From NCBI GenBank assembly GCA_944389465.1, contig CALXML010000001.1, forward strand, positions 79,427 to 143,426: a stretch of 64,000 nucleotides of DNA. The letters run 5' to 3'. Positions 8,930 to 62,778 of this stretch are shown here, piece after piece; position 1 is the stretch's first letter, and every line of letters starts with the position of its first letter. The position numbers and the translations under genes were made by a program. The stretch comes from an uncultured Alphaproteobacteria bacterium (GTDB lineage: Bacteria > Pseudomonadota > Alphaproteobacteria > Rs-D84). The notes beneath the pieces were generated by a model, which saw nothing but the letters and a program-made list of their open reading frames with translations, made no database searches and was not told where the DNA came from.

Positions 8930-9826
8930 CTATATTGATGTTGGTGCAATATCACTGATGTTAACAGCGATATTTCCAATGTTGGCAATTGTGTTACTGT
9001 ACCATATTGACAATGTGATAATAATGGCGATGTTTATCACAATTGCAAAGTATGCAAATATACCGTTTTTCTGTTGGTTGAATTTTGCGCGGCCCGCCAT
9101 ACGAAACCACAGTGCGGATATAATTGCCAATATTAAGGTTAAAGTTACTGATTTAAATCCATAAAAGAATCCTGAATATATTGTTATTATGCAAAACAGT
9201 AATGTGGTGTATGCAGGGCTGGAAACAATCCAGTTGGTAAATTTAGAATACCATTTTGTACGTATTACAACGGATGAATCTGATTTTTTATCATCTGCGA
9301 TTAAGTATCCGCCCGTCCACAGCAAACCAAACCCAAATGGCATAGAGCATATTATTTTCCAAGGACTGATTCCCATTTCGCGACAACGTATATATTTTAC
9401 GTATAAATTTGTTACAAACAGCCCGCACAGGTACATATAGAACAGGCCAGCCATTATGATAATTCCTGTGAACAGGGTGCTTTTTAATGTGCTGAAAATT
9501 ATCAATTTGGTTGTTATTTCATTTTGGTATGTTGCGATAAAATATGCGGAAATAATGAATGCTGTTGCAGCAGTTATCATTTGAACATTATTTAACGCCA
9601 CAAATCCGCGCTGGGTCATATTTTTATTTGGCAGTTTATATAACGTCAATATTGCTGCACAAATCATGGCAATTAATACGGCCAATGTCATCGGCAGGCC
9701 ATAATTACTGTTAAATGTGGCCAAAATCACCGTGAACAGCATTGTCAGTATTAATGAAATTAATGCAAACTTTAATGGTTGCCACAACAGCCAGTTTAAT
9801 ATTGATTGTGATGTTTTACGTGCCAT
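8930..9826 (-). CDS. Hypothetical polytopic membrane protein
   Basis: 298 aa, multiple TM segments, long ORF, coding-like composition. Confidence 0.45.
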   Translation of the reverse strand: MARKTSQSILNWLLWQPLKFALISLILTMLFTVILATFNSNYGLPMTLAVLIAMICAAILTLYKLPNKNMTQRGFVALNNVQMITAATAFIISAYFIATYQNEITTKLIIFSTLKSTLFTGIIIMAGLFYMYLCGLFVTNLYVKYIRCREMGISPWKIICSMPFGFGLLWTGGYLIADDKKSDSSVVIRTKWYSKFTNWIVSSPAYTTLLFCIITIYSGFFYGFKSVTLTLILAIISALWFRMAGRAKFNQQKNGIFAYFAIVINIAIIITLSIWYSNTIANIGNIAVNISDIAPTSI

Positions 9827-13555: not shown

Positions 13556-13585
13556 GTCACCATTCGGACCGAGGAGAGTATAAAT

Positions 13586-15214
13586 ATGACCAAACCGATA
13601 AAATTTTTATTTATGTGTGGTATTTTGGGGGCGATGGTTGCCGGATGTGCCACCAAGGAATCGGCCAAGGTTGCTGCATCTGTGGACCAAGATTTTATTA
13701 ATGCGTATGATGCATTTGAAATGTCTAAAAATCCACCGGCCAAGGTTGCCAGTGGCGATACTGTCACTATGTCCGAAGGGGTGTGGTTGGGTGCTTCGTC
13801 CACGTTGTTGGAACATCGCAATAATTTGCCATCACAATATGAAACTGATACGGGTATTACTATTTTATTAAATGAACCTGTAACGCTGCAATCTTTGTCC
13901 AATAACATTACATCTATTACGGGAATACCGGTTAAAATTGATAATCAGGTTAATTCTGAAAAATTAAAAAAGACAATTAATATTGCATATACCGGCAGTT
14001 TGTCTGGGTTATTGTCCCAAATTGCAACGGATTTAGATTTGTTGTGGTATTATGATAAATCTGCGGTTGTGTTTTATGAAACAGAAACAAAGACATTCAC
14101 TTTATATGCGTTGGGAACGGATGTTTCATATCAAACGGCCGTTGAAACAGATGATGGTAACACCGTGTCTTTGGAATCCACATTAAAAGAATGGGATGAA
14201 ATTGAAAATGCGCTGGAAACAATTATTGGTGATGTGGATAATGCCAGTTTTACTGTTTCACGCAGTTTGGGTACAATAACTGTTACTGCGCCACCATCAG
14301 TATTGGCCCGTGTATCTGATTATATTGATAAACAAAATAAACGTCTGTCACAATTGGTAACCATTGATGTCAAGGTTTTACAGGTATCAATATCCAATGA
14401 TTCTGCATTTGGGTTGAATTTGGCAGCGGCGATTAATTCGGCATCTGGATTGAATATTGTGGCCAATCCGAAAAATAATTTGGCCAGTACCGAGGCCAGT
14501 TCTATGAACATTGCGGTGTTGTCTAATGCCGTGTCGGCAATGACCGGTGCCACCCATCAAGAGGGCAGCAGCACCGTAGAGGGCGCATATACACAGGACC
14601 AGATTCAAAATGGTTCTTTGTCTGGGTTGGCCGGAACGGATGCCTTGATTCAGGCTTTGGCCAAGCAGGGCAAGGTATCGTTGGTTACAAACGTTGGTGT
14701 TACAACGCGTAATAACCGTGTCGCGCCAGTAAACAACACGCGTACAACCGGATATATTAAACGTTTTGAATCGCGTAACTTTACAACTGTTGAATCCAGC
14801 ACGGTTGACCAAGATGATTTGGAAACAGGATTTTCAATGCAGTTGTTACCGAATGTATTGGAAAATGGTAAAATATTGTTGCTGTTCAGAATGACTGTGC
14901 GTGAATTACTGCGTATGTCCACACAGACAATTGGCGAGGTTACATTACAATTGCCAGAGGTTGAAGAACGCAGTTTCATGCAAGAGGTTATTATGGAATC
15001 TGGCCAAATGTTGGTGGTTTCCGGTTTTGAAAAACAGGAAAGCAACGATACACGTTATGGTTTGGGTGACCCTGACTTTATGGCGTTGTCTGGGTCGCGT
15101 GAAACATCGGCCACCCGTGATGTGTTGGTTGTTATTCTGACACCACAGGTTTTGGTCAGCCCAATGGATGCGGAACGCACAATTCAGCAGCATTGGGGCG
15201 CGCCATTGAATTAA
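13586..15214 (+). CDS. Lipoprotein secretin (type IVb-pilus PilN/BfpB/TcpC-like)
   Basis: Lipobox VAGCAT. The C-terminal half carries the secretin domain (VTIDVKVLQVS...GLN...LLPNVLENGKILLLFRMTVRELL...QMLVVSGFEKQESNDTRYGLGDPDFMALSGSRETSATRDVLVVILTPQVL). GAGGAG RBS. Confidence 0.75.
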   Translation: MTKPIKFLFMCGILGAMVAGCATKESAKVAASVDQDFINAYDAFEMSKNPPAKVASGDTVTMSEGVWLGASSTLLEHRNNLPSQYETDTGITILLNEPVTLQSLSNNITSITGIPVKIDNQVNSEKLKKTINIAYTGSLSGLLSQIATDLDLLWYYDKSAVVFYETETKTFTLYALGTDVSYQTAVETDDGNTVSLESTLKEWDEIENALETIIGDVDNASFTVSRSLGTITVTAPPSVLARVSDYIDKQNKRLSQLVTIDVKVLQVSISNDSAFGLNLAAAINSASGLNIVANPKNNLASTEASSMNIAVLSNAVSAMTGATHQEGSSTVEGAYTQDQIQNGSLSGLAGTDALIQALAKQGKVSLVTNVGVTTRNNRVAPVNNTRTTGYIKRFESRNFTTVESSTVDQDDLETGFSMQLLPNVLENGKILLLFRMTVRELLRMSTQTIGEVTLQLPEVEERSFMQEVIMESGQMLVVSGFEKQESNDTRYGLGDPDFMALSGSRETSATRDVLVVILTPQVLVSPMDAERTIQQHWGAPLN

Positions 15215-15230
15215 AAAATCTGATTAATAA

Positions 15231-15261
15231 TGGACACCATCGTTTGATGGTGTCTTTTTTA
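15231..15261 (+). terminator. Intrinsic terminator after the secretin gene
   Basis: gacaccatc/gatggtgtc hairpin followed by tttttt. Confidence 0.75.
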
Positions 15262-15468
15262 CTTGTGTAAAAATTGCAAAATTTTTATAATACATTTGCG
15301 AGTCTGGTTGAAAAATATGCCGAATAAAAACGGACGTTTTTTTAACGACTTTTTTATGTCAAAAAACTAATATTTTTCCGTGTTTTTATGTTATGAAATA
15401 TGCCGAAATAAAACGTCCGTTTGTTTTTTTGTTATTCAAACCAGTGGAAAGGGAAGTTCACAACAGGG

Positions 15469-15853
15469 TATGTGGCGTTTTGTTGTTTTGATTTTTGTAT
15501 GCTGCGTATTTTGCGCCACTGGTGCGCGTGCTGATATTGCCAGTGCTGGTTATGTTAATGATATTGTCAGTGCGTTGGATGTGCAATCTGATTGGGCACA
15601 AACAGACAGCAATGCTCGCGATTTTATTCGTAATAAGCCGGAAATCCCATCGCCCGATGCGGTGGAATATATTGATAACAAGGTTTTGGAAATATCGGAT
15701 TCTGTGACTGATAATCAATATCCGTCTGCGCGGGCTGTTAATAATGCGCTGTCAACCAAGGCCGATGTTAACGATGTTCGTTTTAATACCGTGCCAACCA
15801 GTCAACCCGTTGGAATGCCACCCGCAGGTCAGGTATTTATATGGTTTAATTAA
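15469..15853 (+). CDS. Small secreted paralogue of the large fibre proteins (carries the YPSA(K/R)AV motif)
   Basis: ATG at 15469 gives the signal peptide MWRFVVLIFVCCVFCATGARA followed by DIASAGYVNDIV... This matches the xIASKGYVD N-terminal box of the 57-62 kb genes. It also contains NQYPSARAVNNAL. The longer ORF-track start at 15380 would run through the upstream GCCGAA box. Confidence 0.6.
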
Positions 15854-15855
15854 AT

Positions 15856-16833
15856 ATGCCCGCGATATATATTGGTGATATTCAAATTCCTGTTCAAATG
15901 GCGCAAAATACAACGCCGTCACTGAAAGTTATGGATGCGTTCGGTGTGGTTTATTATGCTGATGCGATGTTGGGGGCGTGTCCCAATGCCGTAAAGGTTT
16001 CAGACGGCGCAGATGTATACAGCATTGGTGCAAAAACATTGGTGTATCAGGCGGATGCAATTAATTCCTGTGAAATGGTTAATTTGCCCGCGGGATGTTA
16101 TTTCGCAGAAATTCGCGGTGGTCGTGGCGGGGACGGCGGGAATAATGCGGGCAGTGGTATGGATGCCATCGTTCAATCATACAGTTTTACAATTACGCAG
16201 CCCACGGATGTGTATGTTTTTCGTGGGGCGGACGGTAATGCCGGCGCGGTAAATATTGATGGCAACATTGCAACCGGTGGTGGGGGCGGGGCGTCTGGGA
16301 TGCCCAGTATGTTGGTGGTTGGTGAAAATGTAATTATTTCAGATGGGGGCGCGGGTGGTCGCGGCGGTCTGGCATCTGATAACAGTGGCGCAACGTATGA
16401 ATGTGGTTCTGGGGGTGGTGGAAATGGTGGCGAAAATGCAAATGGGTTAAATGCGGTTGCACACTATACATGGAATTATAATTTTTTAATGTGTGGTGCG
16501 GGTGGTGGTGGTGCACCAAATGGCGCATCTGGGGTCAGTGCTGATGCATTAAGCGGTGGTTATGGTGGTGATGCATCTGATGCGGGCAGTCCGGATTCTG
16601 GGGGCAGGGGCGGTGATGCGTGGCGTCTGGTTTCAACAACAACCGGCGGGGCGGGTGGCGCCAGTGTTTCAATGTCTTGCGCGGGACAAACCTTGACATC
16701 GTATGGTGGTGGGGGCGGTGGTGCGGTTCAGGCTAAATTTACGTTGCCGGTAAATATGGATGGTGGAAATGGCGGCAGTGGCACAACCGGCAACAGCGAA
16801 ACCAGTTTCGTGCGGATTTTCAGATTCGGATAG
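15856..16833 (+). CDS. Glycine-rich repeat protein (GGxGG tracts), no signal peptide; possibly tail-fibre-like
   Basis: 325 aa. Starts 2 nt after the previous stop, which suggests translational coupling. Long GG(A/R/D)GG runs. Confidence 0.5.
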   Translation: MPAIYIGDIQIPVQMAQNTTPSLKVMDAFGVVYYADAMLGACPNAVKVSDGADVYSIGAKTLVYQADAINSCEMVNLPAGCYFAEIRGGRGGDGGNNAGSGMDAIVQSYSFTITQPTDVYVFRGADGNAGAVNIDGNIATGGGGGASGMPSMLVVGENVIISDGGAGGRGGLASDNSGATYECGSGGGGNGGENANGLNAVAHYTWNYNFLMCGAGGGGAPNGASGVSADALSGGYGGDASDAGSPDSGGRGGDAWRLVSTTTGGAGGASVSMSCAGQTLTSYGGGGGGAVQAKFTLPVNMDGGNGGSGTTGNSETSFVRIFRFG

Positions 16834-17035: not shown

Positions 17036-18913
17036 TTGTTTGTGTCGTCTGCATTTGCGGCCGGATATTCGTGCCCTGCATATAAAAAATATACATCTTG
17101 TAATGCCGGATATTATTTGAATGGAACAGGGGCGGGAAATTCTTGTTCGTCGTGTACGGGTGTGTCGTTTACCAATTATGGTACTGATACCACAACAGAT
17201 TACAGTGGATGCACCGCCACATCACAAACGGTTAGTGGCAGTATCAGTGGTGGTGGTTCGTATACGCAATACCAAACGCGTACCGGTTCGCGTACAGGTA
17301 CACGCAGTAAAAGCCAGACCTGTTATCGTACTGGTGGGGCGGGTGGAACCAGTGGTTCATCTGCTTGTACAGGTATGGGGAATTGCGGGGCGTGGTCATA
17401 TGGCAGTTGGTCGTATGGGGCGTGCAATTACACTGCGTGGGCAAACAGTGGTGCGCGAAAAATAACCTGTCCGGCGGGAACCTATTGGAATGGTTCTGGG
17501 TGTGCGTCCTGTGGCACGGGGTATTATTGTGCGGGCTTTAACAGCGTTGACGAATCGTCATTATTAAATGGTTATGGGCGTAAATCTTGTACAAATGCGC
17601 CGGCAAACGCCAATTACACCGGCAGTGCAACAACAAATTCATGTGCGTGGTCATGCAAGGCGGGCTATTACGGTTCATCCGTCGCGGGCAGTACATCTTG
17701 TGCGGATTGCGGCAGTGGTAATTATTGTACTGGTGGAACACATCGTGCAACATGTGCGTCAACTGTACTGGCCAGTGCGCCAATCCCCACTAACATTATA
17801 TCTGTGTCCAGTGGCAGTTGGTTGGATTTTAATCATGCAACCAGTACATCTGATTGTGTATGTGAATGGTATTTTAGTGATGATGTCAGAACGCAATATA
17901 TGAATCAACGCTTATGCAGTGAAGGGCCGGGGGGAAATAATTATACGCATTATAATTGGTGCAGAACAGGATATTATGCAACTGAACCACTGAATTTTAA
18001 CAATTGGTATAACAACTGTGCGGCGTGCACGAATGGACCGGCTAATTCCACGTACACCAGTTACAGCACCCCATCACAGATGTATGCAGTGGAAAGTAAT
18101 TGCCCGTGGCAATGTAATGCCGGTTTTTACAAAAATGGTAACAGTTGTGTTGCGTGTCCAAGTGCATATCCGTATTCAGATGCGGGTGCAACATCGGTAA
18201 CCCAGTGTTACAGTGGCACAAAAAAACGTGCATGGAACGGCAGTCAAATACCATGTGCAAAGCCATCGGGGTGTGCCACGGTGCAATGTAATGCATGTTC
18301 AAAATCAACGTGTGATTATGTTGCATATGCAAACAGTGCGGGCACTGGTGATGGCGAGGTTAAATCAGGCTGTACCACTAATAATGCGTCGTGTAATCAA
18401 ACGGTTGCGTCGGTTACTGCGGCGTCCGGATATTATGTTAATGGCGTATCCTGTCCGGCGTGCAGTGGGGTGGGGGACGGTTCGTATACTTTGTCTGAAA
18501 ATGGCAATACCGGTGGCAATGCCCAATGTTACAAGATTTGTTCGCGTGCATGTACGCAACAGGCGTGTCCTGCAAATGCCACGTGTACGCATGGCACAAC
18601 CAGTACGTCGGGGGTTCAATATTATGGGGGCGCATGCAATGCGGCCGCGTCAACATGCACCATGTCTTTTGAATGTAATAATGGGTATAACTTAACGTCT
18701 GGCAATATTTGTGCCCAGTTATGCACCGCCGGTGCAACACATTTGAAAACGGGTACTGGGGTCAGTATACCATTATATTCCGCACCGCAATCGGTGCCCG
18801 CAATAAATGTCGGGTATAATGGCGATGTGTGTTATGGCACATTGGCAACCGGCGCGGCCAGTGGGGCATTTAATGTAAAGTACGGCGGTTCAACATATCA
18901 CGCAGTTCAATAA
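17036..18913 (+). CDS. Large cysteine-rich secreted repeat protein (family member; GYYC/CxxC-rich)
   Basis: 625 aa with more than 60 Cys and recurring CxAGYYxxG/CTGG motifs. The ORF-track start is a TTG. The N-terminal LTLFVSSAFAA would be a short signal-like segment if an upstream CTG start is used. The start is uncertain. Confidence 0.6.
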   Translation: MFVSSAFAAGYSCPAYKKYTSCNAGYYLNGTGAGNSCSSCTGVSFTNYGTDTTTDYSGCTATSQTVSGSISGGGSYTQYQTRTGSRTGTRSKSQTCYRTGGAGGTSGSSACTGMGNCGAWSYGSWSYGACNYTAWANSGARKITCPAGTYWNGSGCASCGTGYYCAGFNSVDESSLLNGYGRKSCTNAPANANYTGSATTNSCAWSCKAGYYGSSVAGSTSCADCGSGNYCTGGTHRATCASTVLASAPIPTNIISVSSGSWLDFNHATSTSDCVCEWYFSDDVRTQYMNQRLCSEGPGGNNYTHYNWCRTGYYATEPLNFNNWYNNCAACTNGPANSTYTSYSTPSQMYAVESNCPWQCNAGFYKNGNSCVACPSAYPYSDAGATSVTQCYSGTKKRAWNGSQIPCAKPSGCATVQCNACSKSTCDYVAYANSAGTGDGEVKSGCTTNNASCNQTVASVTAASGYYVNGVSCPACSGVGDGSYTLSENGNTGGNAQCYKICSRACTQQACPANATCTHGTTSTSGVQYYGGACNAAASTCTMSFECNNGYNLTSGNICAQLCTAGATHLKTGTGVSIPLYSAPQSVPAINVGYNGDVCYGTLATGAASGAFNVKYGGSTYHAVQ

Positions 18914-19223: not shown

Positions 19224-19774
19224 ATGAAAAATCGTGTGTTTATTTGGGGCGTGGCTTTTGCGTGCGCCTGTGTTGGCAATGTTGTTGGGCGAACATGCAC
19301 CAGTTCTGTAAATATACAATGTCCGGTTACAGCGGGTGCAGCAAGTTGTTGCCGTATGTTGAATGAAACCTGTGCAGAGGCGGGCTGTGGCGGTACATCT
19401 GGTGGGGGGATGTGGAAGATTGCGACCCGTGTCCTGCGGCTGAATTGACATGGACGGTAAATCGCTTGTATGGCTTTCAGTACAGAATTTCTGGGTATAT
19501 GCAGGATGCAATAACATGCCGTTGTACACCACAATATATCACGCAATGCATAGCAGGCCGATACGGATTAAGCGTGATAACCACGAACAATATACCAACG
19601 GCTGATGAGGTGGATTGTAAATTTTGTCCGTCTGCTGGTGGGCGGATAAATCCGGCAACATCTGTGGCGGGGAAAAATAATCTTATAACGTCTTGTTATA
19701 TACCGGCCAATGCAACGGGCAGTGATGATACGGGCACGTTTACGGTCAGTAATGATTGTTATTATACAGAATAA
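19224..19774 (+). pseudogene. Cysteine-rich family member with the conserved CYY tail, interrupted by a frameshift in a G6 tract (19404-19409). Either phase-variable or a pseudogene.
   Basis: ATG 19224 with aaaggg RBS encodes the signal peptide MKNRVFIWGVAFACACVG... and the frame closes at 19448. ORF 19412..19774 in another frame ends ...CYIPANATGSDDTGTFTVSNDCYYTE. Adding one G to ggtgggggga gives a continuous ...SGGGDVEDCDPCP... protein. Confidence 0.55.
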
Positions 19775-49781: not shown

Positions 49782-50288
49782 TTATTCTGAATAATAGCAG
49801 TTATTCGTATATGTGCATGTACCGGATGTGTCAGAACAACTGCTGCCACTGGGCAGATAGCATGATGTTATGCTGGTGCTGCCGGTGGGGGATGTGCCGC
49901 CCCCCGGACATTCTGTGCATTGACCTGCAAGAAAGGATGTTGGGGTGCCATAATATCCGGCCGCGCATTTATATGAATATCTGCGTGAACAGGTACATGT
50001 GATTGTGCCGGTCATACCAGTTGGACAATTTGATAGTATGGATGCGGTCCCTGTGGTTATAACACCATTTCTGGTGGTGGTGGTATTTTTGCAGTTACGG
50101 CAAGAGTCGCCCTCGCACGATGAATCAACTGTCCAGTTTGCACCGACAGGCATTTGTGGACACATATAGCATATAATATCCGCATTTGCCGTTGGAATAA
50201 ATATTGTCAGAAAACCACCGATTTTTTTCGGCAAAAAAGGGGAGTAAAAAAATGCAAAAATCTGGGATTTTTTCAAAATTAAAAACAC
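49782..50288 (-). CDS. Cysteine-rich family member with the conserved CYY tail; N-terminus unclear (no obvious signal peptide)
   Basis: Ends ...CPGGGTSPTGSTSITSCYLPSGSSCSDTSGTCTYTNNCYYSE. The ORF-track GTG start lies inside the conserved leader cassette. The first internal ATGs give MCPQMPVG... without a signal peptide. It may be a 5'-degenerate copy. Confidence 0.45.
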   Translation of the reverse strand: MFLILKKSQIFAFFYSPFLPKKIGGFLTIFIPTANADIICYMCPQMPVGANWTVDSSCEGDSCRNCKNTTTTRNGVITTGTASILSNCPTGMTGTITCTCSRRYSYKCAAGYYGTPTSFLAGQCTECPGGGTSPTGSTSITSCYLPSGSSCSDTSGTCTYTNNCYYSE

Positions 50289-53880: not shown

Positions 53881-54600
53881 ATGAAAAGATTAGTTTCTTT
53901 GGCTGTTTTGCTGGGGTTGGCGATGCCGGCCGTGGCTGCACCCAGTTATTTAACCCGTGACAATAATGGTGGGTATGTTGTCACATATGATTATACGGAC
54001 AAGGCAAAGACCGGTTGGTATGTTGGTGCGCGTGCTGAATTGGGATTCTGGAACTGGGAAAACAAATACAGTGCAGATGATGATTTAACCGGTTTGGACA
54101 ATAATTACAACAGTGATAAGTATTCTTTTGAACCTGTCTTTGGTGGCAGCATATTTGGTGGTACACGTTTTGCTTATTTCTGGCGTGCAGAGCTGGAGGC
54201 TGGATATCTGGGCTATTTCAAGGATAAAGATGCCGCCGCAGAATTTACCATGCAAATTCCGTATGTAATGTTGAATGGATATTACGATTTTACAAATGGT
54301 TTATATTTGGGTGCGGGTGTTGGTGTCGCGATGCCAATAACAACCATTGATATGATTTGGGCGGATGGCAGTGACCGCACAGAATACGGCGTTGCGCCAA
54401 TGGCTGGTGTAATGTTGGGGTATTCATATGAACTGGATGATAATCTGGTTTTGGATTTGCGCTATCGCTTGGCAGGGATGACCGGTGTTGACCAAAAAAT
54501 AGATATGTTTGACACTGATGGGGCACCACACTGGTTCCAAAATGATATAGATTTTATACTGGATAATTCTGTATCAATTGGTATCAGATATGAATTTTAA
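53881..54600 (+). CDS. Outer membrane beta-barrel protein (Omp25/OmpA-like barrel family)
   Basis: Signal peptide MKRLVSLAVLLGLAMPAVA. Alternating amphipathic strands. C-terminal ...GIRYEF with terminal Phe. RBS aaaaaggaagg. Confidence 0.7.
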   Translation: MKRLVSLAVLLGLAMPAVAAPSYLTRDNNGGYVVTYDYTDKAKTGWYVGARAELGFWNWENKYSADDDLTGLDNNYNSDKYSFEPVFGGSIFGGTRFAYFWRAELEAGYLGYFKDKDAAAEFTMQIPYVMLNGYYDFTNGLYLGAGVGVAMPITTIDMIWADGSDRTEYGVAPMAGVMLGYSYELDDNLVLDLRYRLAGMTGVDQKIDMFDTDGAPHWFQNDIDFILDNSVSIGIRYEF

Positions 54601-54662
54601 CATAAAATGCTATTGACCCGATTCGCATAAATATGATATTATTGTTTAGGTAGAGAGAATTG

Positions 54663-57218
54663 ATGAAAAAAGAACTGAAAATTTCAAGGTTGGCAATAAT
54701 TTGCGTCTTGTGTACGGCGGTGTCTGGTGCGTATGGTGCATCGTCGGTTCGGTCGTTGGGTGGCAGTGGCACATATTCCAGTGCGTCTGATGCGGCGGCT
54801 GCGAACAGTGGTTCTGCCGGTTCAACTGCTGCTGTTCGTGGCGGGTCTGTGCGTGTAACGCCGTCGTCTGGTGTTTCTGGGACCGGTACAACAATAAATG
54901 CCGGAACAACAACCAGTGGCCGTGTTGCGACAACGCCGCGTTTATCAATTGGTCATTATTTGGGTGGTGGTACGTCTGTCAGTGGTGGCAGTTCGTTGCG
55001 TCCGCAAACACCGTCAACCGGTGGTGGCAGTATGAATCCGGGGGAATCCGGTGGTGCCAGTGGCTGGCAGGATGCTGTTGACGAATTGTGGGATGAAATT
55101 GATGGGTTGTATGCGGCCGATACTGATATCAGTGACCAATTACAAAACAAGCAAGATGTGCTGACTGCGTCTGATGGTTTGATAACCATTGAAAATGGTG
55201 AAATTTTCATTGAAACAGATAATTTGGCTGGCGCAATAGAAGATAAACTGGGGACATCACGCCAAATTGAATTGGGTGTTGATGGCGGTTATGTTGTGTG
55301 GCGTTATGCCGGTGATGCAGATTGGCAGAATTTGGTCGCACTGGATGATTTACGTGGTCCACAGGGCGAGGCCGGCGAATCCGTCACAGTAGAAGATGTT
55401 ATCAATGGCATAGAAGATGACCTGCAGGCGGCGGTTAATACCGCGGTATCTGCGGCGGTTGCGGCCGAAATTGAAAAGGCTGATTTGGTAACAAATACGG
55501 AGTTAGAAAAGTTTGCGACGGATGTAGTGGAACGTGGCTTACAGGCCAAGGCAAACGCCGCCGATGTTTACACCAAGGCCGAGGTTTATAATAAAACCGA
55601 GGTTGACAGCAAGGTTGCAGACATTGTTGCCGGCGATATGGACGAGGCATTGGCAAACAAAGCAGACAAGACGTATGTTGATACTGAATTATCAAAGAAA
55701 GCGGATAAAACAGAATTAGCAAATTATGCAACAACCGCCAGTGTGTCTGCATTGGGAACAGAAATTGATGATGTAGCCCAAGCGGCCGGTGGCGCGGCGG
55801 CAACTGCAACCGCGGCGGCATCTGATGCGGCGCGGGCGTTAAGTGGTCTGGATGCCAAGGAAAATGTTTCTAATAAACAGCAAACTGTAACAAACAGTGC
55901 GACGGATTATCCGTCCGGTGCGGCGGTAACCGCGGCGTTGGCGGACAAGGCCGATAAAACGGAATTGGCGGGTTATGCCACGACTGATGATTTAGATGCC
56001 AAGGCTGACAAGGCAACAACATTGGCCGGATATGGTATTACCGATGCATATACCACAACACAGATTGATGAAAAGTTAGAAGCCGTAACCGTTGGTGGTA
56101 TGGAGGGTATGGAACAAGTTCTGGCCGGCAAGCAAGATGTTGCCAATATGGCGCAAACTGTTACCGATGATGACACAAAATATCCATCTTCTGCGGCGGT
56201 ATATGGTGAATTGGAAACCAAGGCCAATGCATCTGATTTAAAAACCACAAATGAAACGGTAAATCAGATTGAACAAAACGTTACAAATGTAACGGAAACT
56301 GTTAATGAATTGGATGAAACAATTAATAATGCCGAAACAGGTTTGGTTAAACAGGTTAATGAAATAAACCAAAATGTTACCAATGTGACGCAAAGTGTTA
56401 CAAATATCACAGAACAGGTAACTGAAATTACAAATCCTGAAACCGGTTTGAAATCACAAATAGACGCGGTGGCCACAACGGCTGAATCTGCTGCACAGAC
56501 GGCGCAAACCGCACAACAGACGGCGCAAACCGCACAACAAACGGCGGAACAGGCCCAACAAACAGCCACCGGCGCACAAAGCGCGGTGGAAGCATTGGGG
56601 GCAACTGTTGGTAATGCAGAATCTGGTCTGGTCAAGGATGTTGCCGATGCAGCGGCCGCGGCCAATGATGCCAAGACAACCGCCGGTGCAGCACAGGAAA
56701 CTGCAAATACCGCACAGGAAACAGCCAATGCAGCAAAAAGTGCGGCTGATGCGGCAACTGCGGGATTGGCAAATAAACAGGATAAATTGGAATACACACC
56801 TGAAAATCAGGCATTGAAAACACAGGATATTGAAACCAATGCGGGTTCAACAACAATGTATCCATCGGCCAAGGCTGTTGTGGATTATGTTGCGAATGCT
56901 GTGGCCGAGGGCGTGGACATTAACACCGATAAAATCCAAAACGGTGCGGTTACCATGGAAAAATTGGGTGAAGATGTCAAGGCGGAATTAGATGCCAAGG
57001 CCGATGCAGATTCATTGGGTAAGTTGGCGCAAAGGGACGAAATTACGAATGCCGAGGTTGCGGCCAATGCCGCGATTGAAAAGTCTAAATTGGCGTCTGA
57101 TGTTCAGGCGGCATTGGACAAGGCTGAAAAAGCGGTCAGCACTGATGGTGCGGCTGGGAATAGTGTGCTGGGTACTGATGGTGACGGAAATCCAGTATGG
57201 TACGAAATAGCAATGTAG
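54663..57218 (+). CDS. Large secreted fibre protein 1 (851 aa; Ser/Gly-rich N-terminus, coiled-coil and phage-tail-fibre-like repeats)
   Basis: Signal peptide MKKELKISRLAIICVLCTAVSGAYGA. Repeats include KADKTELAGYATT, LAGYGITDAYT, NAESGLVKDV, KYPSAKAVVDYV and DKIQNGAVTMEKLGED. RBS gagag. Confidence 0.65.
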   Translation: MKKELKISRLAIICVLCTAVSGAYGASSVRSLGGSGTYSSASDAAAANSGSAGSTAAVRGGSVRVTPSSGVSGTGTTINAGTTTSGRVATTPRLSIGHYLGGGTSVSGGSSLRPQTPSTGGGSMNPGESGGASGWQDAVDELWDEIDGLYAADTDISDQLQNKQDVLTASDGLITIENGEIFIETDNLAGAIEDKLGTSRQIELGVDGGYVVWRYAGDADWQNLVALDDLRGPQGEAGESVTVEDVINGIEDDLQAAVNTAVSAAVAAEIEKADLVTNTELEKFATDVVERGLQAKANAADVYTKAEVYNKTEVDSKVADIVAGDMDEALANKADKTYVDTELSKKADKTELANYATTASVSALGTEIDDVAQAAGGAAATATAAASDAARALSGLDAKENVSNKQQTVTNSATDYPSGAAVTAALADKADKTELAGYATTDDLDAKADKATTLAGYGITDAYTTTQIDEKLEAVTVGGMEGMEQVLAGKQDVANMAQTVTDDDTKYPSSAAVYGELETKANASDLKTTNETVNQIEQNVTNVTETVNELDETINNAETGLVKQVNEINQNVTNVTQSVTNITEQVTEITNPETGLKSQIDAVATTAESAAQTAQTAQQTAQTAQQTAEQAQQTATGAQSAVEALGATVGNAESGLVKDVADAAAAANDAKTTAGAAQETANTAQETANAAKSAADAATAGLANKQDKLEYTPENQALKTQDIETNAGSTTMYPSAKAVVDYVANAVAEGVDINTDKIQNGAVTMEKLGEDVKAELDAKADADSLGKLAQRDEITNAEVAANAAIEKSKLASDVQAALDKAEKAVSTDGAAGNSVLGTDGDGNPVWYEIAM

Positions 57219-57229
57219 GGGGAATTTAA

Positions 57230-58951
57230 ATGAAAAAATCAAATATTGCATTTTCTGGATTTATGGCGGCGATTTTAATTAGTGCCGGCGCGGCAAATGC
57301 TGCAACAACCCAGATTGCCAGCAAAACATATGTGGATAACAAGGAAACATCAATCCTGCAAACGGTTGGTGACACATATGAAACCAAGGCGAATGTCCAA
57401 ATAATTCAACAAAATGTGAACAAATTGGGCGATACTATTAATAATGAAGAATCCGGTCTGAAGGCACAAATAGAAGACGCGGCCGCCGCGGCGCAAACCG
57501 CACAACAGACGGCGGAATCGGCCCAGCAAACGGCCACCGGTGCACAAAGTGCGGCCACGGCATTGGGGGTAACTGTTGGTAACGCTGAATCTGGATTGGT
57601 CAAGGATGTTAATGATTTGGAGGCAACAGTTGGTGGGTTGCAAACAACGGTCAGTGGTTTGGATAAAGAACTGGATTCCAAATTAGACAGCGCAACCGCC
57701 GCAACAACATATGAAAAAGTGTCTAATAAATCACAGGATTTGGCAACCGATGCGGGCAGTACAGATAAATATCCATCGGCCAAGGCAGTTGTGGACTGGG
57801 TCAGCAATACTGTGACCGAGGGCATAGAAATTAATACTGATAAAATCCAAAATGGCGCAATCACGACTGAAAAAATTGGGGATGATGCGGTAACGGCGGA
57901 TAAAATTGCACCTGATGCGGTTGGAAATGAACAAATTGCTGATGGCGCGGTATCATCTGATAAATTGGATGAAACGTTGGCCGGACAAATTGCCGATATT
58001 TCTGGCAAGCAGGACATTGCAATGGGTGTCGGTCACGAAAATCATATCGTGACAACTGATGCGTCCGGTAATATTACATCCGCCGCGACAATCGGCCAGG
58101 ACAAGGTTACTGGATTGACCGATGCCTTGGCGGGCAAGGCCGATGCATCCGCGTTGGAAGAAATTGAACAAAATGTGGAACAGGTTCAAAATCAATATAC
58201 AACAATTAATGAAACAGTAACGAAATTGGGCGATACAATTACCAACGAAGAAAGTGGTTTAAGCACCCAGATTACAAATATTACACAACAAATTGGTAAT
58301 GCAGAATCCGGTTTGGTCAAGGATGTCGCCGACGCGGCGGCCGCGGCTGAAACTGCGCAACAAACGGCCACCGGCGCACAAAATGCGGTTGATGCATTGG
58401 AAACGGTTGTTGATGGCAAGGCAAACGCATCCACAACACTGGCGGGATATGGCATAACCGATGCGTATACCAAGACCGAAACAGATGGTCTGTTGGATGC
58501 CAAGGCCGATGAAAGTGCTTTGGCTGGGTATGCAACAACGGGTGCGTTGACGTCTGGATTGGCAGGCAAAGAAGATACATCTAATAAGACCAAAATAATC
58601 AATGATGGCAATAAATCGTCTGAAACACTGTTCCCGACAATTGGCGCAATCACCACGTGGACAGATCAACAGATTCAACAGTTATCGACCGAGGGTATTC
58701 CTGTTAATCCAGATAACATTGGTTCAAATGCAATTACAACCGATAAAATTGCCAATGGTGCTGTTACAACAGAAAAATTGGCGGACGATTCCGTGACAGA
58801 AGACAAGCTGAGCAATGATGTTGTTGCATCTATTGATGCAAAGTTACCGGCGCCGGATGCGGATTGTGTTGCGGATTCAAATCTGTGCGTATTGACAGTA
58901 ACGCCCAGTGGTGATTTGGCGTGGGTTGCGGTAACACAGCCGGCAGAATAA
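57230..58951 (+). CDS. Secreted fibre protein 2 (573 aa), paralogue
   Basis: Signal peptide ending ...ANAATTQIASKTYVD. Shares ESGL/NAESGLVKDV, KYPSAKAVVDWV, DKIQNGAITTEKIGDD and LAGYGITDAYTKTE with protein 1. The C-terminal CVADSNLCVLTVTPSGDLAWVAVTQPAE is shared with protein 3. RBS aggggg. Confidence 0.65.
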   Translation: MKKSNIAFSGFMAAILISAGAANAATTQIASKTYVDNKETSILQTVGDTYETKANVQIIQQNVNKLGDTINNEESGLKAQIEDAAAAAQTAQQTAESAQQTATGAQSAATALGVTVGNAESGLVKDVNDLEATVGGLQTTVSGLDKELDSKLDSATAATTYEKVSNKSQDLATDAGSTDKYPSAKAVVDWVSNTVTEGIEINTDKIQNGAITTEKIGDDAVTADKIAPDAVGNEQIADGAVSSDKLDETLAGQIADISGKQDIAMGVGHENHIVTTDASGNITSAATIGQDKVTGLTDALAGKADASALEEIEQNVEQVQNQYTTINETVTKLGDTITNEESGLSTQITNITQQIGNAESGLVKDVADAAAAAETAQQTATGAQNAVDALETVVDGKANASTTLAGYGITDAYTKTETDGLLDAKADESALAGYATTGALTSGLAGKEDTSNKTKIINDGNKSSETLFPTIGAITTWTDQQIQQLSTEGIPVNPDNIGSNAITTDKIANGAVTTEKLADDSVTEDKLSNDVVASIDAKLPAPDADCVADSNLCVLTVTPSGDLAWVAVTQPAE

Positions 58952-59003
58952 AAAACGGATTTTGAAACTGAAAATAAAACAAACTAAAAGAAAGGAAAGG
59001 AAA

Positions 59004-60404
59004 ATGAAAAAATTAACAGCAGGTATATTTGCAACATTGTTGGCAGTTGTATCCACAGGTGCCGCAAATGCAGAAATCGCATCCAAGGGATACGTTGACC
59101 AACAGGTTGACACTGTGGAGGCAACAGTCGCGAACAAGGCTGATTCCGCAACTGTTACTGCGTTGGACACGCGTGTTGAAACGGCCGAGGGCGAAATTGA
59201 CGCGTTACAAACAACAACTGGTCAACATACAACCCAGATTGGCACAATTAATACAACATTGGCGGGTAAAGTTGATGATGCAGATATCGCAGATATGCAG
59301 GTAAAAGCAAATTTAACAACATCCACAGGATGGAATACAGATAAAACATCTGAAACCAAATATCCATCCAATGCCGCGGTTGATGCAGCAATTACCGCCG
59401 CAACAACAGGTATTGCCACTGATACAGAAGTTTCTGCATTAGGGAAACGTGTTGAAACATTGGAAACAGCGTCCGCAACACACGCAACAAAAACTGAATT
59501 AACAGACGGGTTGGCAGCCAAGGCAAATACCGCTGATTTGGGTGATTTGGCAACATTGGATGCCGTTGGCAGTGCACAAATTACAGATGGCGCTGTTGCG
59601 ACCGCTGATATTGCAGATAAAGCAGTAACCGAAGCAAAATTGTCTGATACAGTTAATGCATCTTTGGACAAGGCTGATACCGCATTACAACAGACTGATT
59701 TGGCAGCATATCAAACCAAGGAAGCGGCCGATGAGGCATATGCTGTAAAATCAACTGAACAAACCGCAAGTACAGCCAGCACAAATGCACAAACAGCATT
59801 AACAAACATTGGTACTTTGACAAATTTAACAACAACTGCCAAGGCTAATACCGTTGTGGCAATCAATGAAGTAGCCAGTGAAGCAGCCGCCGCCGCCAGT
59901 GCCGCATCCACAGCAGATGGCAAGGCCGTTGCAGCACAGAGTGCAGCAGAAGCCGCACAGGCGGATGTTGATGCGTTGGAAACAACTGTTTCAGGACAGG
60001 GCACACGTTTGACAACGGCCGAGGGTGAAATTGATTCCATCCAGTCAGAAATGGAAAATATGGCAACATCTGAAACTGTTTCTGGTTTGCAATCAACAGT
60101 AACAAATCTGCAAAGCACAAAGCAGGATAAAACAGATAATACATTGACCACAACCAGCAAGACTGTTGTCGGTGCTATTAATGAAGTAAAGACACAGGCC
60201 GACAAGGGCGTTTCTGATGCGGCAACTGCAAAATCAGCAGCAGACGCAGCCCAAGATGCCGCCGATGCAGCGCAGAAAACTGCCAATGCAGCAATTCCAG
60301 CACCAACAGATGCTTGTGCGGATTCCACAAACAAGTGCGTGTTGGTATCGTCCGGTGCGGGTAACTATTCTTGGGAAGTTATTGCCCGTGGCGATGCCGA
60401 ATAA
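59004..60404 (+). CDS. Secreted fibre protein 3 (466 aa), paralogue
   Basis: MKKLTAGIFATLLAVVSTGAANAEIASKGYVDQQV. The C-terminal CADSTNKCVLVSSGAGNYSWEVIARGDAE is shared with protein 2. RBS aaaggaaaggaaa. Confidence 0.65.
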   Translation: MKKLTAGIFATLLAVVSTGAANAEIASKGYVDQQVDTVEATVANKADSATVTALDTRVETAEGEIDALQTTTGQHTTQIGTINTTLAGKVDDADIADMQVKANLTTSTGWNTDKTSETKYPSNAAVDAAITAATTGIATDTEVSALGKRVETLETASATHATKTELTDGLAAKANTADLGDLATLDAVGSAQITDGAVATADIADKAVTEAKLSDTVNASLDKADTALQQTDLAAYQTKEAADEAYAVKSTEQTASTASTNAQTALTNIGTLTNLTTTAKANTVVAINEVASEAAAAASAASTADGKAVAAQSAAEAAQADVDALETTVSGQGTRLTTAEGEIDSIQSEMENMATSETVSGLQSTVTNLQSTKQDKTDNTLTTTSKTVVGAINEVKTQADKGVSDAATAKSAADAAQDAADAAQKTANAAIPAPTDACADSTNKCVLVSSGAGNYSWEVIARGDAE

Positions 60405-60515
60405 TAACGGCGTAACAATATGTGTGCGGTGTTAAATGTGCACCGCACATATAAAAACAGGTAAATGCGGAACAAAGTGATACTGAAAAATAATATTTGT
60501 AGGTAGATAACAGCA

Positions 60516-62093
60516 ATGATGAAGTCAAAAGGTCTTTTCGCAGTTTCATTTATGGCCATAATGGCGGTCAGCGTGGCGAATGCAGAAATTGCATCGCAGG
60601 GATACGTTGACGAGCAGGTCGCAACCAAGCAGGATGCGGGTGATTACGCAACCAATACTGCATTGGGGACGGTACGCACAACTGCAACAAATGCAGCCAG
60701 TGCCGCAGCAACCGCGCAATCTGCTGCTGATGCCGCAAAAAAGGCCGCTGATGCCGCACAGGATACAGCGGATGATGCCGCCGCCGCCGCGGCCACGGCA
60801 CAATCAACCGCCGCAGGCAAATTGTCCAGCATTTCTGGGTCAACCGGTGGCACGGGGAATGTGGTGACCAGTGTTTCGGCATCGGGTTCAACTGTTTCCG
60901 CGACCAAGGGTATAACTGCAGAAGAAACCAAAAATAAAGTTACATCTGTTCGTGCCGCAGCCAGTGCAACTGATACGGCATATCCATCTGAAAAGGCGGT
61001 GGCCACCGCTTTGGCGGCCAAGGCCAATACGTCTGCACTGTCCGGATATGCAACAACAACTGCATTGGGTGCAGTAGAGGACAAGGCCGAAGCCGCGCAA
61101 TCTGCGGCCAGTGCGGCCCAGACGGCTGCCGATGATGCCGCTGATGCCGCCAGTGCAGCGCAAAGCACCGCCAATGCCAAGGTGTCAACCGCCCAAGGAA
61201 CTGGGGCGGCAAACAAGGCCGTGATTACAAATGCGTCTGGGAATATTACAACTGGTACGATTGCAACGGGAATGATTACGGATGGCGCGGTGACAACAGC
61301 CAAGATAGGTACAGGTGCGGTTGGAAATGGTAATTTGGCTAATAATGCCGTGACCAGTGCAAAAATAGCAGATGGCACAATTGTAAATGCTGATATTTCC
61401 GATGATGCCGCCATAGATGCCGCCAAAATTGATGGGTTGGCGACGGTTGCGACATCGGGTTCTTATAATGATTTGGCGAACAAGCCGACAATTCCGACGG
61501 TAAATAATGCAACGTTGACCATTCAGAAAAATGGCGCAACCGTTGACACGTTTACTGCCAATGCGTCTGCAAATAAAACGATTAATATTACTGTGCCGAC
61601 AACAACCAGCCAGTTGACCAATAACAGTGGGTTTATTACATCGGCTGATTTGCCGGATGAATATGTGCTGACGGCCGCGACGGCGTCTGCATTGGGTGGT
61701 GTGAAATCCGGTGGTGATATTACTGTTGGTACGGATGGTGTGGTAACGGTTAACAGCGCAACCAAGGCTGACAGTGCGACAACGGCAACAACAGCGACAA
61801 ACGCAACCAATGCAACGAATGCCACAAATGCAGACCATGCCGATACAGCGGACAGTGCAACCACTGCGGCATCCGCGACCAAGGCAACACAGGATGCGTC
61901 CGGCAATGTGATTACAACCACATATGCGACCAAGGCACAAATAACCGCTTTGAACAGCGCTTCTACGGGAACGGGTGCGGTTGTGACGGCCGTGTCGCAA
62001 ACAGGTGGTAAAGTATCTGTAACCAAGGGAAATGTTCAGATTCCTGTTGGTGGTGAAAATGCAACGTCGTATGCGACAATTTGGATAGAATAA
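60516..62093 (+). CDS. Secreted fibre protein 4 (525 aa), paralogue
   Basis: MMKSKGLFAVSFMAIMAVSVANAEIASQGYVDEQV. Ala/Thr-rich with ITDGAVTTAKIGTGAV..NAVTSAKIADG repeats. The downstream terminator ends the cluster. Confidence 0.65.
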   Translation: MMKSKGLFAVSFMAIMAVSVANAEIASQGYVDEQVATKQDAGDYATNTALGTVRTTATNAASAAATAQSAADAAKKAADAAQDTADDAAAAAATAQSTAAGKLSSISGSTGGTGNVVTSVSASGSTVSATKGITAEETKNKVTSVRAAASATDTAYPSEKAVATALAAKANTSALSGYATTTALGAVEDKAEAAQSAASAAQTAADDAADAASAAQSTANAKVSTAQGTGAANKAVITNASGNITTGTIATGMITDGAVTTAKIGTGAVGNGNLANNAVTSAKIADGTIVNADISDDAAIDAAKIDGLATVATSGSYNDLANKPTIPTVNNATLTIQKNGATVDTFTANASANKTINITVPTTTSQLTNNSGFITSADLPDEYVLTAATASALGGVKSGGDITVGTDGVVTVNSATKADSATTATTATNATNATNATNADHADTADSATTAASATKATQDASGNVITTTYATKAQITALNSASTGTGAVVTAVSQTGGKVSVTKGNVQIPVGGENATSYATIWIE

Positions 62094-62095
62094 AA

Positions 62096-62123
62096 AATCC
62101 CCGCCATCCGGCGGGATTTTTTA
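62096..62123 (+). terminator. Intrinsic terminator after the fibre gene cluster
   Basis: ccccgcc atcc ggcggg hairpin followed by tttttt. Confidence 0.8.
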
Positions 62124-62165
62124 TTAGAGAACAGAGAGCAGAGTAGAGAACAGAGTATAAATGTT

Positions 62166-62203: not shown

Positions 62204-62778
62204 GATTGCTTCGCTGTGCTCGCAATGACAAGAGGAGGGGATAATTATTTACTTAAACCAGAACATATCTTGTTCGGACAAATCAAGCCAATTTGGATTT
62301 ATTGATTCTATTAGTTTGATTTTTTGTGTGCGTGAACCAGATTTTAATTTCTTTTCACGCTCCAAGGCGTCATTTACGTATTTGAAATTTTCGTAATATG
62401 CTAACTTGTTGCAATTATACTTTGCGGTAAATGAATTTTTATATGTTTTGTTTTTGTGTTCGTATACACGGCGACGTATATCGTTCGTAACACCTGTATA
62501 TAATGTGCCGTTTTTACGGTTGAACATTATATAGACGTAAAATTCATAATTTTTCATATTGAAATTATACATTATAAATGTGATAAAAGTGAATGTTTTT
62601 GTCATCGCAATTTACTGGATTGCTTCGCTGCGCTCGCAATGACAAGAGGGGGGGCTGTATACTGGTGTCATCGCGAGGGAGTGCAACGACCGTGGCGATC
62701 CATGGACAATATGTCGCGCATATGCGCGGGTATTATTTACTGGATTGCTTCGCTGCGCTCGCAATGACAAGAGGGGGC
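62204..62778. repeat. Three copies of a 45 bp direct repeat (tttactggattgcttcgctgYgctcgcaatgacaagaggRgggg) flanking a small GIY-YIG gene
   Basis: Copies at 62204-62245, 62611-62655 and 62736-62778. The cgcgcatatgcgcg palindrome lies between copies 2 and 3. Confidence 0.8.
62249..62557 (-). CDS. Small GIY-YIG nuclease superfamily protein
   Basis: MKNYEFYVYIMFNRKNGTLYTGVTNDIRRRVYEHK carries the GIY...YIG...R..EH motif. About 102 aa. The longer ORF-track start is an N-terminal extension. Confidence 0.7.
   Translation of the reverse strand: MKNYEFYVYIMFNRKNGTLYTGVTNDIRRRVYEHKNKTYKNSFTAKYNCNKLAYYENFKYVNDALEREKKLKSGSRTQKIKLIESINPNWLDLSEQDMFWFK

Follow-up and report, generated by a model that had tools for sequence, protein, structure and literature searches.

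A conserved gene array encoding predicted exported fibre proteins in the gut alphaproteobacterium Candidatus Enterousia

The window analysed here is a 64,000-nucleotide (nt) stretch of the core chromosome of Candidatus Enterousia (Alphaproteobacteria, order Rs-D84), and the subject of this report is an array of four consecutive genes at 54663-62093, designated P1 to P4, together with a mini-paralogue located elsewhere in the window and designated P5. An earlier note on this DNA had described four same-strand fibre genes encoding 851, 573, 466 and 525 amino acids (aa), and open reading frame (ORF) analysis gave the same lengths. The proteins lie outside any curated family, yet are built from well-known trimeric-fibre parts. 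The four genes occupy about 7.4 kb, or about 0.8% of the genome, and are kept in every species examined. Enterousia and Rs-D84 genomes are smaller than 1 Mb and lack biosynthesis and respiration, and the organisms have been proposed to be obligate symbionts or parasites that take metabolites from partner cells; the same genome survey mentions type IV pili for a different lineage only (PMC12306168). Elsewhere, the window encodes DnaA, DnaN, GyrB, GatA/B, UvrC, DnaJ, SufBC, PlsY, DprA, AsmA, TolB, FtsEX and Pal, and the region is identical on one metagenome contig.

The N-termini of P1 to P4 have the canonical features of Sec signal peptides, namely 2-4 Lys or Arg residues, a hydrophobic core 12 residues long (mean Kyte-Doolittle value 2.2-2.7) and an AxA-type site, and cleavage is predicted between ANA and A in P1, ANA and E in P2 and P3, and AYG and A in P4. 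The signal peptides proposed in the earlier note are not artefacts of start choice, because Shine-Dalgarno-like purine-rich sequences precede the ATG codons of P1, P2 and P3 (a weaker one precedes that of P4) and because, for each gene, 14-16 orthologues begin with the same N-terminus. No second transmembrane-like stretch was found in the mature proteins by hydrophobicity scan. None of the four has a lipobox, the cleavage sites being of the AxA type with no Cys at +1, and a lipoprotein anchor for P1 was rejected as the Cys residues in its signal peptide are not within a lipobox. Mature P2 and P3 each contain just two Cys residues, a C-terminal pair of the form C-x6/7-C, and mature P1 and P4 contain none. 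The pair, a probable disulfide formed outside the cytoplasm, brackets a short loop and therefore supports an extracytoplasmic location of P2 and P3, so that export is upheld both by genuine signal peptides and by the Cys bracket.

The gaps between P1 and P2, P2 and P3, and P3 and P4 are 11, 52 and 111 nt, respectively. Judged from these short gaps, from a promoter-like site upstream of P1 and from a strong terminator-like hairpin after P4, the four genes probably form one operon (Table 1). No comparable forward-strand terminator was found between P1 and P4. The P3-P4 spacer holds a perfect inverted repeat of 12 base pairs, ATATGTGCGGTG ... CACCGCACATAT, with no T-run, which may be a partial attenuator or a processing site separating expression of P4 from that of P1-P3.

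Table 1 Positions of the array genes, their parts and other features in the window (SP, signal peptide)
Feature	Position	Strand	Description
P1	54663-57218	+	From ATG, TTG one codon upstream; SP, conserved Gly/Ser/Thr/Arg-rich segment, coiled coil, small beta module (residues ~190-240), hexad beta-layer repeats (KANAADVYTKAEVYNKTEVD), three YPS modules, heptad coiled coil, C-terminal hairpin ...NSVLGTDGDGNPVWYEIAM
P1 conserved segment	54738-55067	+	Residues ~26-135
21-nt tandem repeat	56495-56563	+	3.3 copies (Tandem Repeats Finder); encodes QTAQTAQ-type heptads in P1 coiled coil
P2	57230-58951	+	SP, N box, coiled coil, YPS module, decapeptide repeats, GHENHIVTTDASGNIT hairpin module, second coiled coil, LAGYGITDAYTKTE, Cys-bracketed C-terminal hairpin
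P2 N box	57314-57337	+
P2 decapeptide repeats	57845-57964, 58718-58807	+	Residues 206-245 and 497-526
P2 variable patch	58016-58135	+	Residues 263-302
P2 C-terminal hairpin	58847-58948	+	Cys-bracketed
P3	59004-60404	+	From ATG; open frame from TTG 58962, orthologues start MKKLTAG; SP, N box, coiled-coil segments, one YPS module, Ala/Thr-rich stalk, Cys-bracketed C-terminal hairpin ...CADSTNKCVLVSSGAGNYSWEVIARGDAE
P3 N box	59076-59099	+
P3-P4 spacer	60405-60515		Inverted repeat
P4	60516-62093	+	SP, N box, Ala-rich coiled coil, YPS module, NKAVITNASGNIT hairpin, decapeptide repeats, SGSYNDLANKPTIP-type beta-rich half, conserved end ...VTKGNVQIPVGGENATSYATIWIE
P4 N box	60588-60611	+
P4 decapeptide repeats	61275-61415	+
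Sigma-70-like promoter match	54613-54642	+	TTGACC-18-TATTAT with extended TG, 20 nt upstream of P1; consensus match only
Intrinsic terminator-like hairpin	62100-62125	+	CCCGCC-ATCC-GGCGGG then TTTTTT, 7 nt after P4 stop
Outer-membrane protein (OMP)	53881-54600	+	239-aa beta-barrel protein; SP; ends ...IGIRYEF
TcpQ-like protein	12644-13555	+	Pfam TcpQ, 4.7e-18
Lipoprotein secretin	13586-15214	+	Pfam Secretin, 6.3e-14; directly upstream of P5
P5	15470-15853	+	127 aa; SP, N box DIASAGYVN, one YPS module, end ...AGQVFIWFN
TcpQ-secretin-P5-Gly-rich cluster	12644-16833
Cys-rich ORF	17036-18913	+	625 aa
Cys-rich ORF	19412-19774	+
Cys-rich ORF	49782-50288	-
Small ORF after array	62249-62605	-	118 aa; putative GIY-YIG-type nuclease

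When species-representative genomes were scanned, 16 loci were obtained, each of them in Candidatus Enterousia or in a metagenome-assembled genome labelled 'uncultured Alphaproteobacteria'. The gene order was the same in 16 of these 16 species genomes (L002-L017), as far as the contigs reach, and consisted of TolB ... acyltransferase-DUF218-FtsX-FtsE-Pal on the reverse strand and then OMP-P1-P2-P3-P4 on the forward strand, with PAP2 or a small GIY-YIG ORF next after P4 where the contig continues. Two deeper relatives (L023 and L025, FtsE 77-84% identical) keep the arrangement of Pal beside the OMP and fibre genes; L025 has four fibre genes and L023 has two. The OMP gene, which had been noted directly upstream of the array, is adjacent and co-directional in all 18, and its product, a candidate anchor for the fibres, matches the Pfam models OMP_b-brl at 5.7e-6 (27.0 bits; cutoff 28.7) and OmpA_membrane at 2e-4. 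The suggestion in the earlier note that the array might vary in length between strains did not hold for gene number, which is always four in the genus, ruling out copy-number variation within Enterousia; it is the genes that vary in length, up to three-fold. Homologues are numerous in metagenomic data (more than 1,100 for P2 and 868 for P1) and are annotated at most as 'hypothetical protein'. The small ORF that stands right after the array terminator has a 69%-identical copy at the same site in L011 and is absent from L005, L008 and L016, where PAP2 follows P4; its sequence suggests a GIY-YIG-type nuclease, and its patchy presence suggests a mobile homing-endonuclease-like gene.

Every module quoted in the earlier note was found again in P1-P4. 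NAESGLVKDV[AN]D occurs once in P1 and twice in P2, DKYPSAKAVVDWV occurs in P2 with a near copy in P1, DKIQNGA[IV]TxEK[IL]G[ED]D and LAGYGITDAYT are each present in both P1 and P2, and ADKTELA[GN]YATT occurs twice in P1. The paralogy of the four proteins is far above chance by BLASTP, with the best match between P1 and P2 (8e-36, 46% over 218 aa), followed by P3-P4 (7.5e-8) and P2-P4 (1e-5), and the DNA of P1 and P2 includes 122 nt at 86% identity. The N-terminal box, IAS..YV[DN], is common to P2, P3 and P4, as had been described, and is also present in P5, but the box of P2 has T in place of G. The reported 'GAVTTAKIADGAVT-type heptad runs' are in fact decapeptide repeats with a hydrophobic period of about 5/10, not 3.5, and true heptad periodicity lies at residues 519-590 of P1, 99-130 and 302-330 of P2, and 43-57 and 309-323 of P3.

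The decapeptide repeat, I-x-D-G-A-V-T-x-x-K, is found in both P2 and P4. A search of 1.84 billion proteins was dominated by this module, which occurred in 23,975 cluster representatives including proteins of 1,000-5,000 aa, and the search says little on the spread of the whole architecture. Some of the decapeptide-repeat proteins have a signal peptide followed by 'QVPRTISYQGLL' and others have phage-like N-termini. No Pfam model covers the repeat, Pfam searches with seven of the giant proteins were uninformative, and the only name attached to the giants is 'hypothetical protein'. Among solved structures, orf16 of Legionella phage LME-1 (PDB 9eg4) appears to be an example. The segment at residues ~26-135 of P1 resembles a low-complexity linker, yet conservation among 25 homologues reaches 90% or more at many positions (for example ASSVRSLGGxGTY and GRVATTPRLSIGHYLGG), and it contains several conserved Arg residues within an Arg-poor protein; it may be an anchoring or threading segment.

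Searches of Pfam and NCBIfam with P1-P4 returned nothing over a family threshold and only sub-threshold coiled-coil noise; Fibritin_C, at 0.089, was also below its cutoff. Those matches that were informative all fell on trimeric fibres. In the PHROG database these were to tail-fibre and tail families (phrog_892 at 7e-11 for P2, phrog_19976 at 3.3e-10 for P1 residues 197-240, and phrog_7660 at 7.6e-6 for P4). Among structures, P1 residues 226-348 matched the stalk of the trimeric autotransporter NadA (PDB 4cjd, E 2e-6) on KANAADVYTKAEVYNKTEVD, P3 residues 44-103 matched the trimeric needle coiled coil of P22 gp26 (E 1.4e-3), GCN4-fusion constructs used in work on beta-layers matched at 7.7e-3, and the P2 profile matched reovirus sigma1 (0.008) and, in its decapeptide region, LME-1 orf16 (7e-4). 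Together with short tblastn matches, these results support the claim of the earlier note that the proteins are built from repeats like those of phage fibres, and show modules in common with adhesin stalks as well.

P2 to P5 have their N boxes (IASKTYVD, IASKGYVD, IASQGYVD and IASAGYVN) within mature residues 2-12, at a distance of 1-4 residues from the predicted cleavage site. N-capping beta-layers, which occur at the N-terminal ends of trimeric coiled coils, have the consensus [aliphatic]-A-T-K-polar-[DE] and can stably start a coiled coil at the N-terminus of a protein, and the trimeric HylP tail fibre of a Streptococcus prophage (2C3F) contains both 'AATKAYVD' and 'KADKETVYTKAE' (Hartmann et al. 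2016, PMC4786415). At the level of sequence motifs the N boxes agree with this consensus, and the P1 hexads (KADKTE, VYTKAE) fit the second HylP motif. The N box is better explained as a generic N-capping beta-layer of a predicted parallel trimeric coiled coil than as a family-specific signature. In an AlphaFold2 monomer model of P2, built from a 56-sequence alignment, the credible parts are confined to two long helices, at 53-152 (moderate confidence) and 306-406 (per-residue confidence, pLDDT, 80-92 over about 310-390), and two hairpins, at 272-287 and 553-567. These helices and the heptad periodicity bear out the fibrous nature proposed for the array proteins.

The C-terminal ends are ...WYEIAM in P1, ...VTQPAE in P2, ...ARGDAE in P3 and ...TIWIE in P4, and both the Cys-bracketed ends of P2 and P3 and the differing ends of P1 and P4 are as had been described. 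The ends of P1-P3 share (I/L)PxP, a loop (bracketed by Cys in P2 and in most of the P3 proteins), (Y/C)VL, a turn with G, an invariant Trp and (I/V). The second of the modelled hairpins stands at this end of P2, and the hairpin would be a foldon-like registration element.

The shared modules raise the question of whether the fibres belong, as a remnant or as a working part, to a prophage, gene transfer agent or tailocin and serve as tail fibres attached to a phage-like particle. The PHROG matches to tail-fibre, tail-assembly and minor-tail families, the matches to phage fibre and appendage genes and to PDB entries of phage structural proteins, and the small GIY-YIG ORF adjoining the array would allow this. 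It is very improbable. Modules are shared with phage fibres (PHROG profiles, tblastn modules and gp26); across 18 syntenic genomes or contigs, the genes have no phage structural-gene context, all four proteins have cleavable signal peptides, and none has a virion-attachment N-domain. No capsid, portal, terminase, tail tube, baseplate or integrase gene was found in the flanks of the array, which are occupied by housekeeping and envelope genes, and the array holds the same position in the 16 species genomes and the two deeper relatives. A scan of IMG/VR with the P2 family found no relative, P4 had no tblastn match in 50,697 phage genomes, and the P2 matches were to modules of 40-100 aa only, in phage fibre or appendage genes. 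The view that these are chromosomal bacterial genes is supported. The further proposal, that they possibly derive from tail-fibre domains, is the weaker one, as likeness to known phages is confined to modules of 40-100 aa, P4 has no phage match and IMG/VR no relative.

The NadA stalk match and the beta-layer motifs, which are typical of autotransporter stalks, likewise point towards type Vc trimeric autotransporter adhesins, with the barrel either missed or supplied in trans by the OMP encoded immediately upstream in every genome. The barrel, which the earlier note had named as a possible oversight, was not found, there being no YadA_anchor or Autotransporter Pfam match at E<=1 in P1-P4. The proteins end with M, E, E and E after a short hairpin and not with a four-strand amphipathic barrel with a terminal aromatic residue, the stop codons are real and are followed by the next gene or the terminator, and the OMP is a 239-aa small barrel of the OmpA/Omp25 type. 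To our knowledge, no split type V system with a small barrel in trans has been described. Such an arrangement is scarcely credible here, and identity with trimeric autotransporters was rejected since there is no anchor domain and the ORFs end cleanly. The likeness to the stalks of this class (NadA, YadA/UspA) includes a signal peptide, a coiled-coil stalk interrupted by beta-layers, repetitive recombining stalks and, for NadA, a direct sequence match on KANxADVYTKAEVYxKxExD; the difference is that the Enterousia fibres have no C-terminal YadA-type barrel and no head or neck domains.

Across the 16 loci, flanking proteins were 67-94% identical to those of the window, and the fibres were 34-76% identical with large indels. 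Orthologue lengths are about 850-1063 aa for P1, 505-670 aa for P2, 324-595 aa for P3 and 293-992 aa for P4. Column conservation is highest at the signal peptide and N box and in the C-terminal 25-50 residues, and lowest in the middle, where 30-60% of positions are gaps. Modules have moved between genes: the P2 hairpin module (residues 248-310) is found in the P3 orthologue of L007 and L009, and a P4 segment in the P2 orthologue of L005. Two 98%-identical P1 variants (P0295 and P0296) lack residues 612-618, exactly one heptad, inside the 21-nt tandem repeat. In 98%-identical P2 variants, 7 of 9 substitutions fall within residues 263-302 (I263K, A264N, A278E, S279T, D291A, K292Q and G302A), a pattern that looks like a small gene-conversion patch. 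The module at these residues, MGVGHENHIVTTDASGNITSAATIGQDKV, is near-invariant among species-level orthologues despite the strain-variant cluster, and its HENH motif may bind metal, as in some phage fibres. The shafts would diversify quickly by gain, loss and exchange of whole modules among orthologues and paralogue slots, and by heptad slippage, with the ends fixed.

Two further explanations are to be weighed against this pattern. In the first, P1-P4 would be periplasmic trimeric coiled-coil tethers or rulers, comparable to Lpp or CpoB, acting with Tol-Pal, the OMP and FtsEX. This would agree with Sec export without a recognisable outer-membrane translocation signal, with the nearby pal, tolB, ftsEX and OMP genes, and with weak Alanine_zipper (OprI/Lpp) matches in all four proteins. 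These matches score 10.7-17.1 bits against a cutoff of 23.1 bits, and with the missing lipobox they led to rejection of an Lpp/OprI-type lipoprotein. Adjacency to pal counts for little, because the synteny extends over a single genus and its near relations. Lengths of 293-1063 aa, differing up to three-fold between species, are at odds with a fixed periplasmic width, and the divergence, far above that of envelope neighbours, and the module shuffling are atypical of housekeeping parts. Length variation, module exchange between paralogues and divergence together point to selection from outside the cell, which argues against a periplasmic ruler, and this explanation is improbable.

In the second, the proteins would form a non-specific fibrillar coat, S-layer- or glycocalyx-like, or would be released, and would act as spacers or as a shield against phages, immunoglobulin A, bile or proteases. 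The conserved ends, hypervariable shafts and want of an evident globular tip favour a coat, as do the extreme composition (Ala plus Thr 28-41%, Arg 0-1.5%, very few aromatics), the unconstrained shaft length, shown best by P4, and the antigenic-variation-like clustering of substitutions in the P2 variants. A shielding or spacer coat is a serious alternative to an adhesin, since the tips are small and conserved and the shafts variable. It is counted as unlikely overall, because four paralogues each retain their own strictly conserved C-terminus in every species, which suggests four terminal functions, and no SLH anchoring, type I secretion system or lattice-forming domain was detected with Pfam or NCBIfam. 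A coat also overlaps with the preferred explanation, as both need surface exposure.

That preferred explanation is that P1-P5 are Sec-exported homotrimeric fibre proteins displayed as contact or adhesion fibres of Candidatus Enterousia, and a probability of roughly 55% is assigned to it. After cleavage, mature P2-P5 would begin 1-4 residues before an N-capping beta-layer, IAS[KQ]xYVD, that caps a parallel three-stranded coiled coil. The shaft would then alternate heptad coiled coils, hexad beta-layers (KADKxE / VYTKxE), YPS modules of about 35 aa, decapeptide (IxDGAVTxxK) beta repeats and hairpins. A short conserved C-terminal hairpin with an invariant Trp, clamped by a probable disulfide in P2 and P3, would register the three chains as the foldon of fibritin does. 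Folding, either in the periplasm or beyond it, would yield homotrimeric rods with lengths in the tens of nanometres. The four genes, predicted to form one operon, lie next to an OMP gene within an envelope locus (Tol-Pal, FtsEX). It is proposed that the fibres pass through the outer membrane and extend outwards to make contact or adhere, which would suit an organism whose genome is below 1 Mb and which is believed to live at the expense of partner cells. In function they would be analogous to the MAT fibres of Bdellovibrio, the stalks of trimeric autotransporters and Lcl of Legionella. Gene structure, signal peptides, paralogy, module content, synteny and the pattern of conserved ends and variable middles are established by the analysis, and the trimeric state, the operon, the disulfide, surface display, the export route, the ligand and adhesion are inferred; candidate docking or exit partners are the adjacent OMP, the Arg-containing N-segment of P1 and a TcpQ-secretin pair encoded beside P5.

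The fifth small paralogue that had been reported beside the secretin is real and lies directly after it, starting at 15470 and not at 15469. In BLASTP, P5 matched P1 at 2e-4 and P4 at 4e-4, and in phmmer it matched orthologues down to 6e-8. The four genes of the cluster encode the TcpQ-like protein, the secretin, P5 and, from 3 nt after the P5 stop, a Gly-rich protein of 325 aa that has GGxGG runs and lacks a signal peptide, and this order is conserved in other Enterousia contigs (L018-L021). No ATPase, platform or pilin genes of pilus or type II secretion systems adjoin the cluster. By virtue of the position of P5, the TcpQ-secretin pair is a possible outer-membrane exit route for the fibre family.

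Several points weigh against the contact-fibre explanation. No outer-membrane anchor or transport domain was found in the Pfam and NCBIfam scans, whether a YadA anchor, an autotransporter barrel, a lipobox, or a type IX or type I secretion signal, and the position of P5 is all that links the secretin pair to the family. The ends are conserved, the shaft is variable and there is no evident globular tip for receptor binding at the C-terminus, in contrast to most phage fibres and the MAT fibres considered below, which weakens a simple model of an adhesin that binds its receptor by the tip. The trimeric state is deduced from motifs, and a profile of the aligned C-terminal hairpins found no foldon chain in the PDB, only chance matches (hirudin, subtilisin). 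The structural models are of low confidence, with a mean pLDDT of 57.6 and a predicted template modelling score (pTM) of 0.24 for the P2 monomer and a pLDDT of 54.2 for a monomer of P1 residues 120-300, and Foldseek of the latter against the PDB gave nothing at E<=0.001. Finally, promoter-like sites over the whole region are not enriched relative to shuffled sequence.

Of the known systems, the MAT fibres of Bdellovibrio bacteriovorus offer a close likeness. These are signal-peptide-bearing, mosaic, trimeric and surface-displayed, and have a beta-rich domain, conserved and about 130 aa long, right after the signal peptide and either an S74 chaperone-protease or globular tips (TNF-like, C-type lectin or beta-sandwich) (Caulton et al. 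2024, PMC10769870). Both sets are chromosomal, multi-paralogue, phage-fibre-like and mosaic with a conserved end, both carry signal peptides and come from a bacterium that depends, or is believed to depend, on other cells, and the MATs too have no known anchor to the producer cell. The two differ in that P2-P5 pass from the cleavage site directly into a beta-layer and coiled coil, and P1 into its Gly/Ser/Arg-rich segment; in that MAT shafts are mainly beta-helix, and the Enterousia fibres consist for the most part of alpha/beta coiled coil and end in a hairpin of about 25 aa; and in that the variable part of the Enterousia fibres is the shaft, not the tip. No Peptidase_S74 or lectin Pfam match was found in P1-P4, and no PDB match to solved MAT tips at E<=1. 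Membership of the MAT family was ruled out by the missing S74 or globular tips and the missing N-domain, the latter judged from the published description of MATs and not by direct sequence comparison.

T4 fibritin, P22 gp26 and HylP are similarly segmented trimeric coiled coils with beta-layers, and the two HylP motifs are near-identical to the N box and the P1 hexads; the short C-terminal hairpin with its Trp resembles the foldon pattern of fibritin, a likeness without statistical support. The Enterousia genes differ from these phage fibres in being cellular. The best precedent for the display of anchorless fibres is Lcl of Legionella pneumophila, a trimer exported by Sec and the secretin-based type II secretion system and re-bound to its own surface by a short N-terminal coiled coil (PMC11162425). 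Both have a Sec signal peptide, then a helix or coiled coil that is short and N-terminal, and a long stalk, trimeric in Lcl and predicted to be so in Enterousia, and both lack a membrane anchor; Lcl differs in its collagen triple-helix stalk and its globular DUF1566 C-terminal binding domain, and there is no sequence similarity.

A bolder and doubtful extension of the contact-fibre explanation is a new contact apparatus, in which anchorless Sec-exported trimers of P1-P5 would leave through the stand-alone TcpQ-secretin without type II secretion or type IV pilus machinery, dock back by the N cap, the P1 N-segment and/or the OMP, and attach obligately to a bacterial or host partner. Phage-fibre and stalk modules would then have been domesticated for cell-cell contact independently for a third time, trimeric autotransporters and MATs being the earlier cases.

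Three Cys-rich ORFs with CxxGYY-type repeats have no Pfam match and may belong to another family of variable proteins that are secreted or at the surface. The two at 49782-50288 and 19412-19774 have a similar ending (...C(Y)YY[ST]E), and the 168-aa copy is present in some syntenic loci only (L001, L002 and part of L010). The 625-aa member fills a variable slot downstream of the secretin cluster, which in L018-L020 holds a protein of 869-882 aa with a Pfam Autotransporter domain (9674-12283 in L018) and in L021 is empty (about 9370-9535).

The components described here are already known, and what is new is their combination as secreted, anchorless alpha/beta-coiled-coil fibres in a conserved, probable operon of a reduced-genome gut alphaproteobacterium. 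Candidatus Enterousia is a common uncultured inhabitant of human, livestock and poultry guts, and four fibre genes that are universal in the species examined and evolve faster than their flanks fit an interface with a partner, the host or phages. The finding would matter only locally if the proteins are periplasmic or a mere coat. As surface fibres, they would extend the principle of MATs and trimeric autotransporters to a new architecture without a recognisable anchor, and would be obvious candidates for fishing out the partner or receptor and natural markers for strain typing. Should the new contact apparatus prove true, it would offer a first molecular clue to the way in which this widespread, uncultured lineage of the gut locates its partner.

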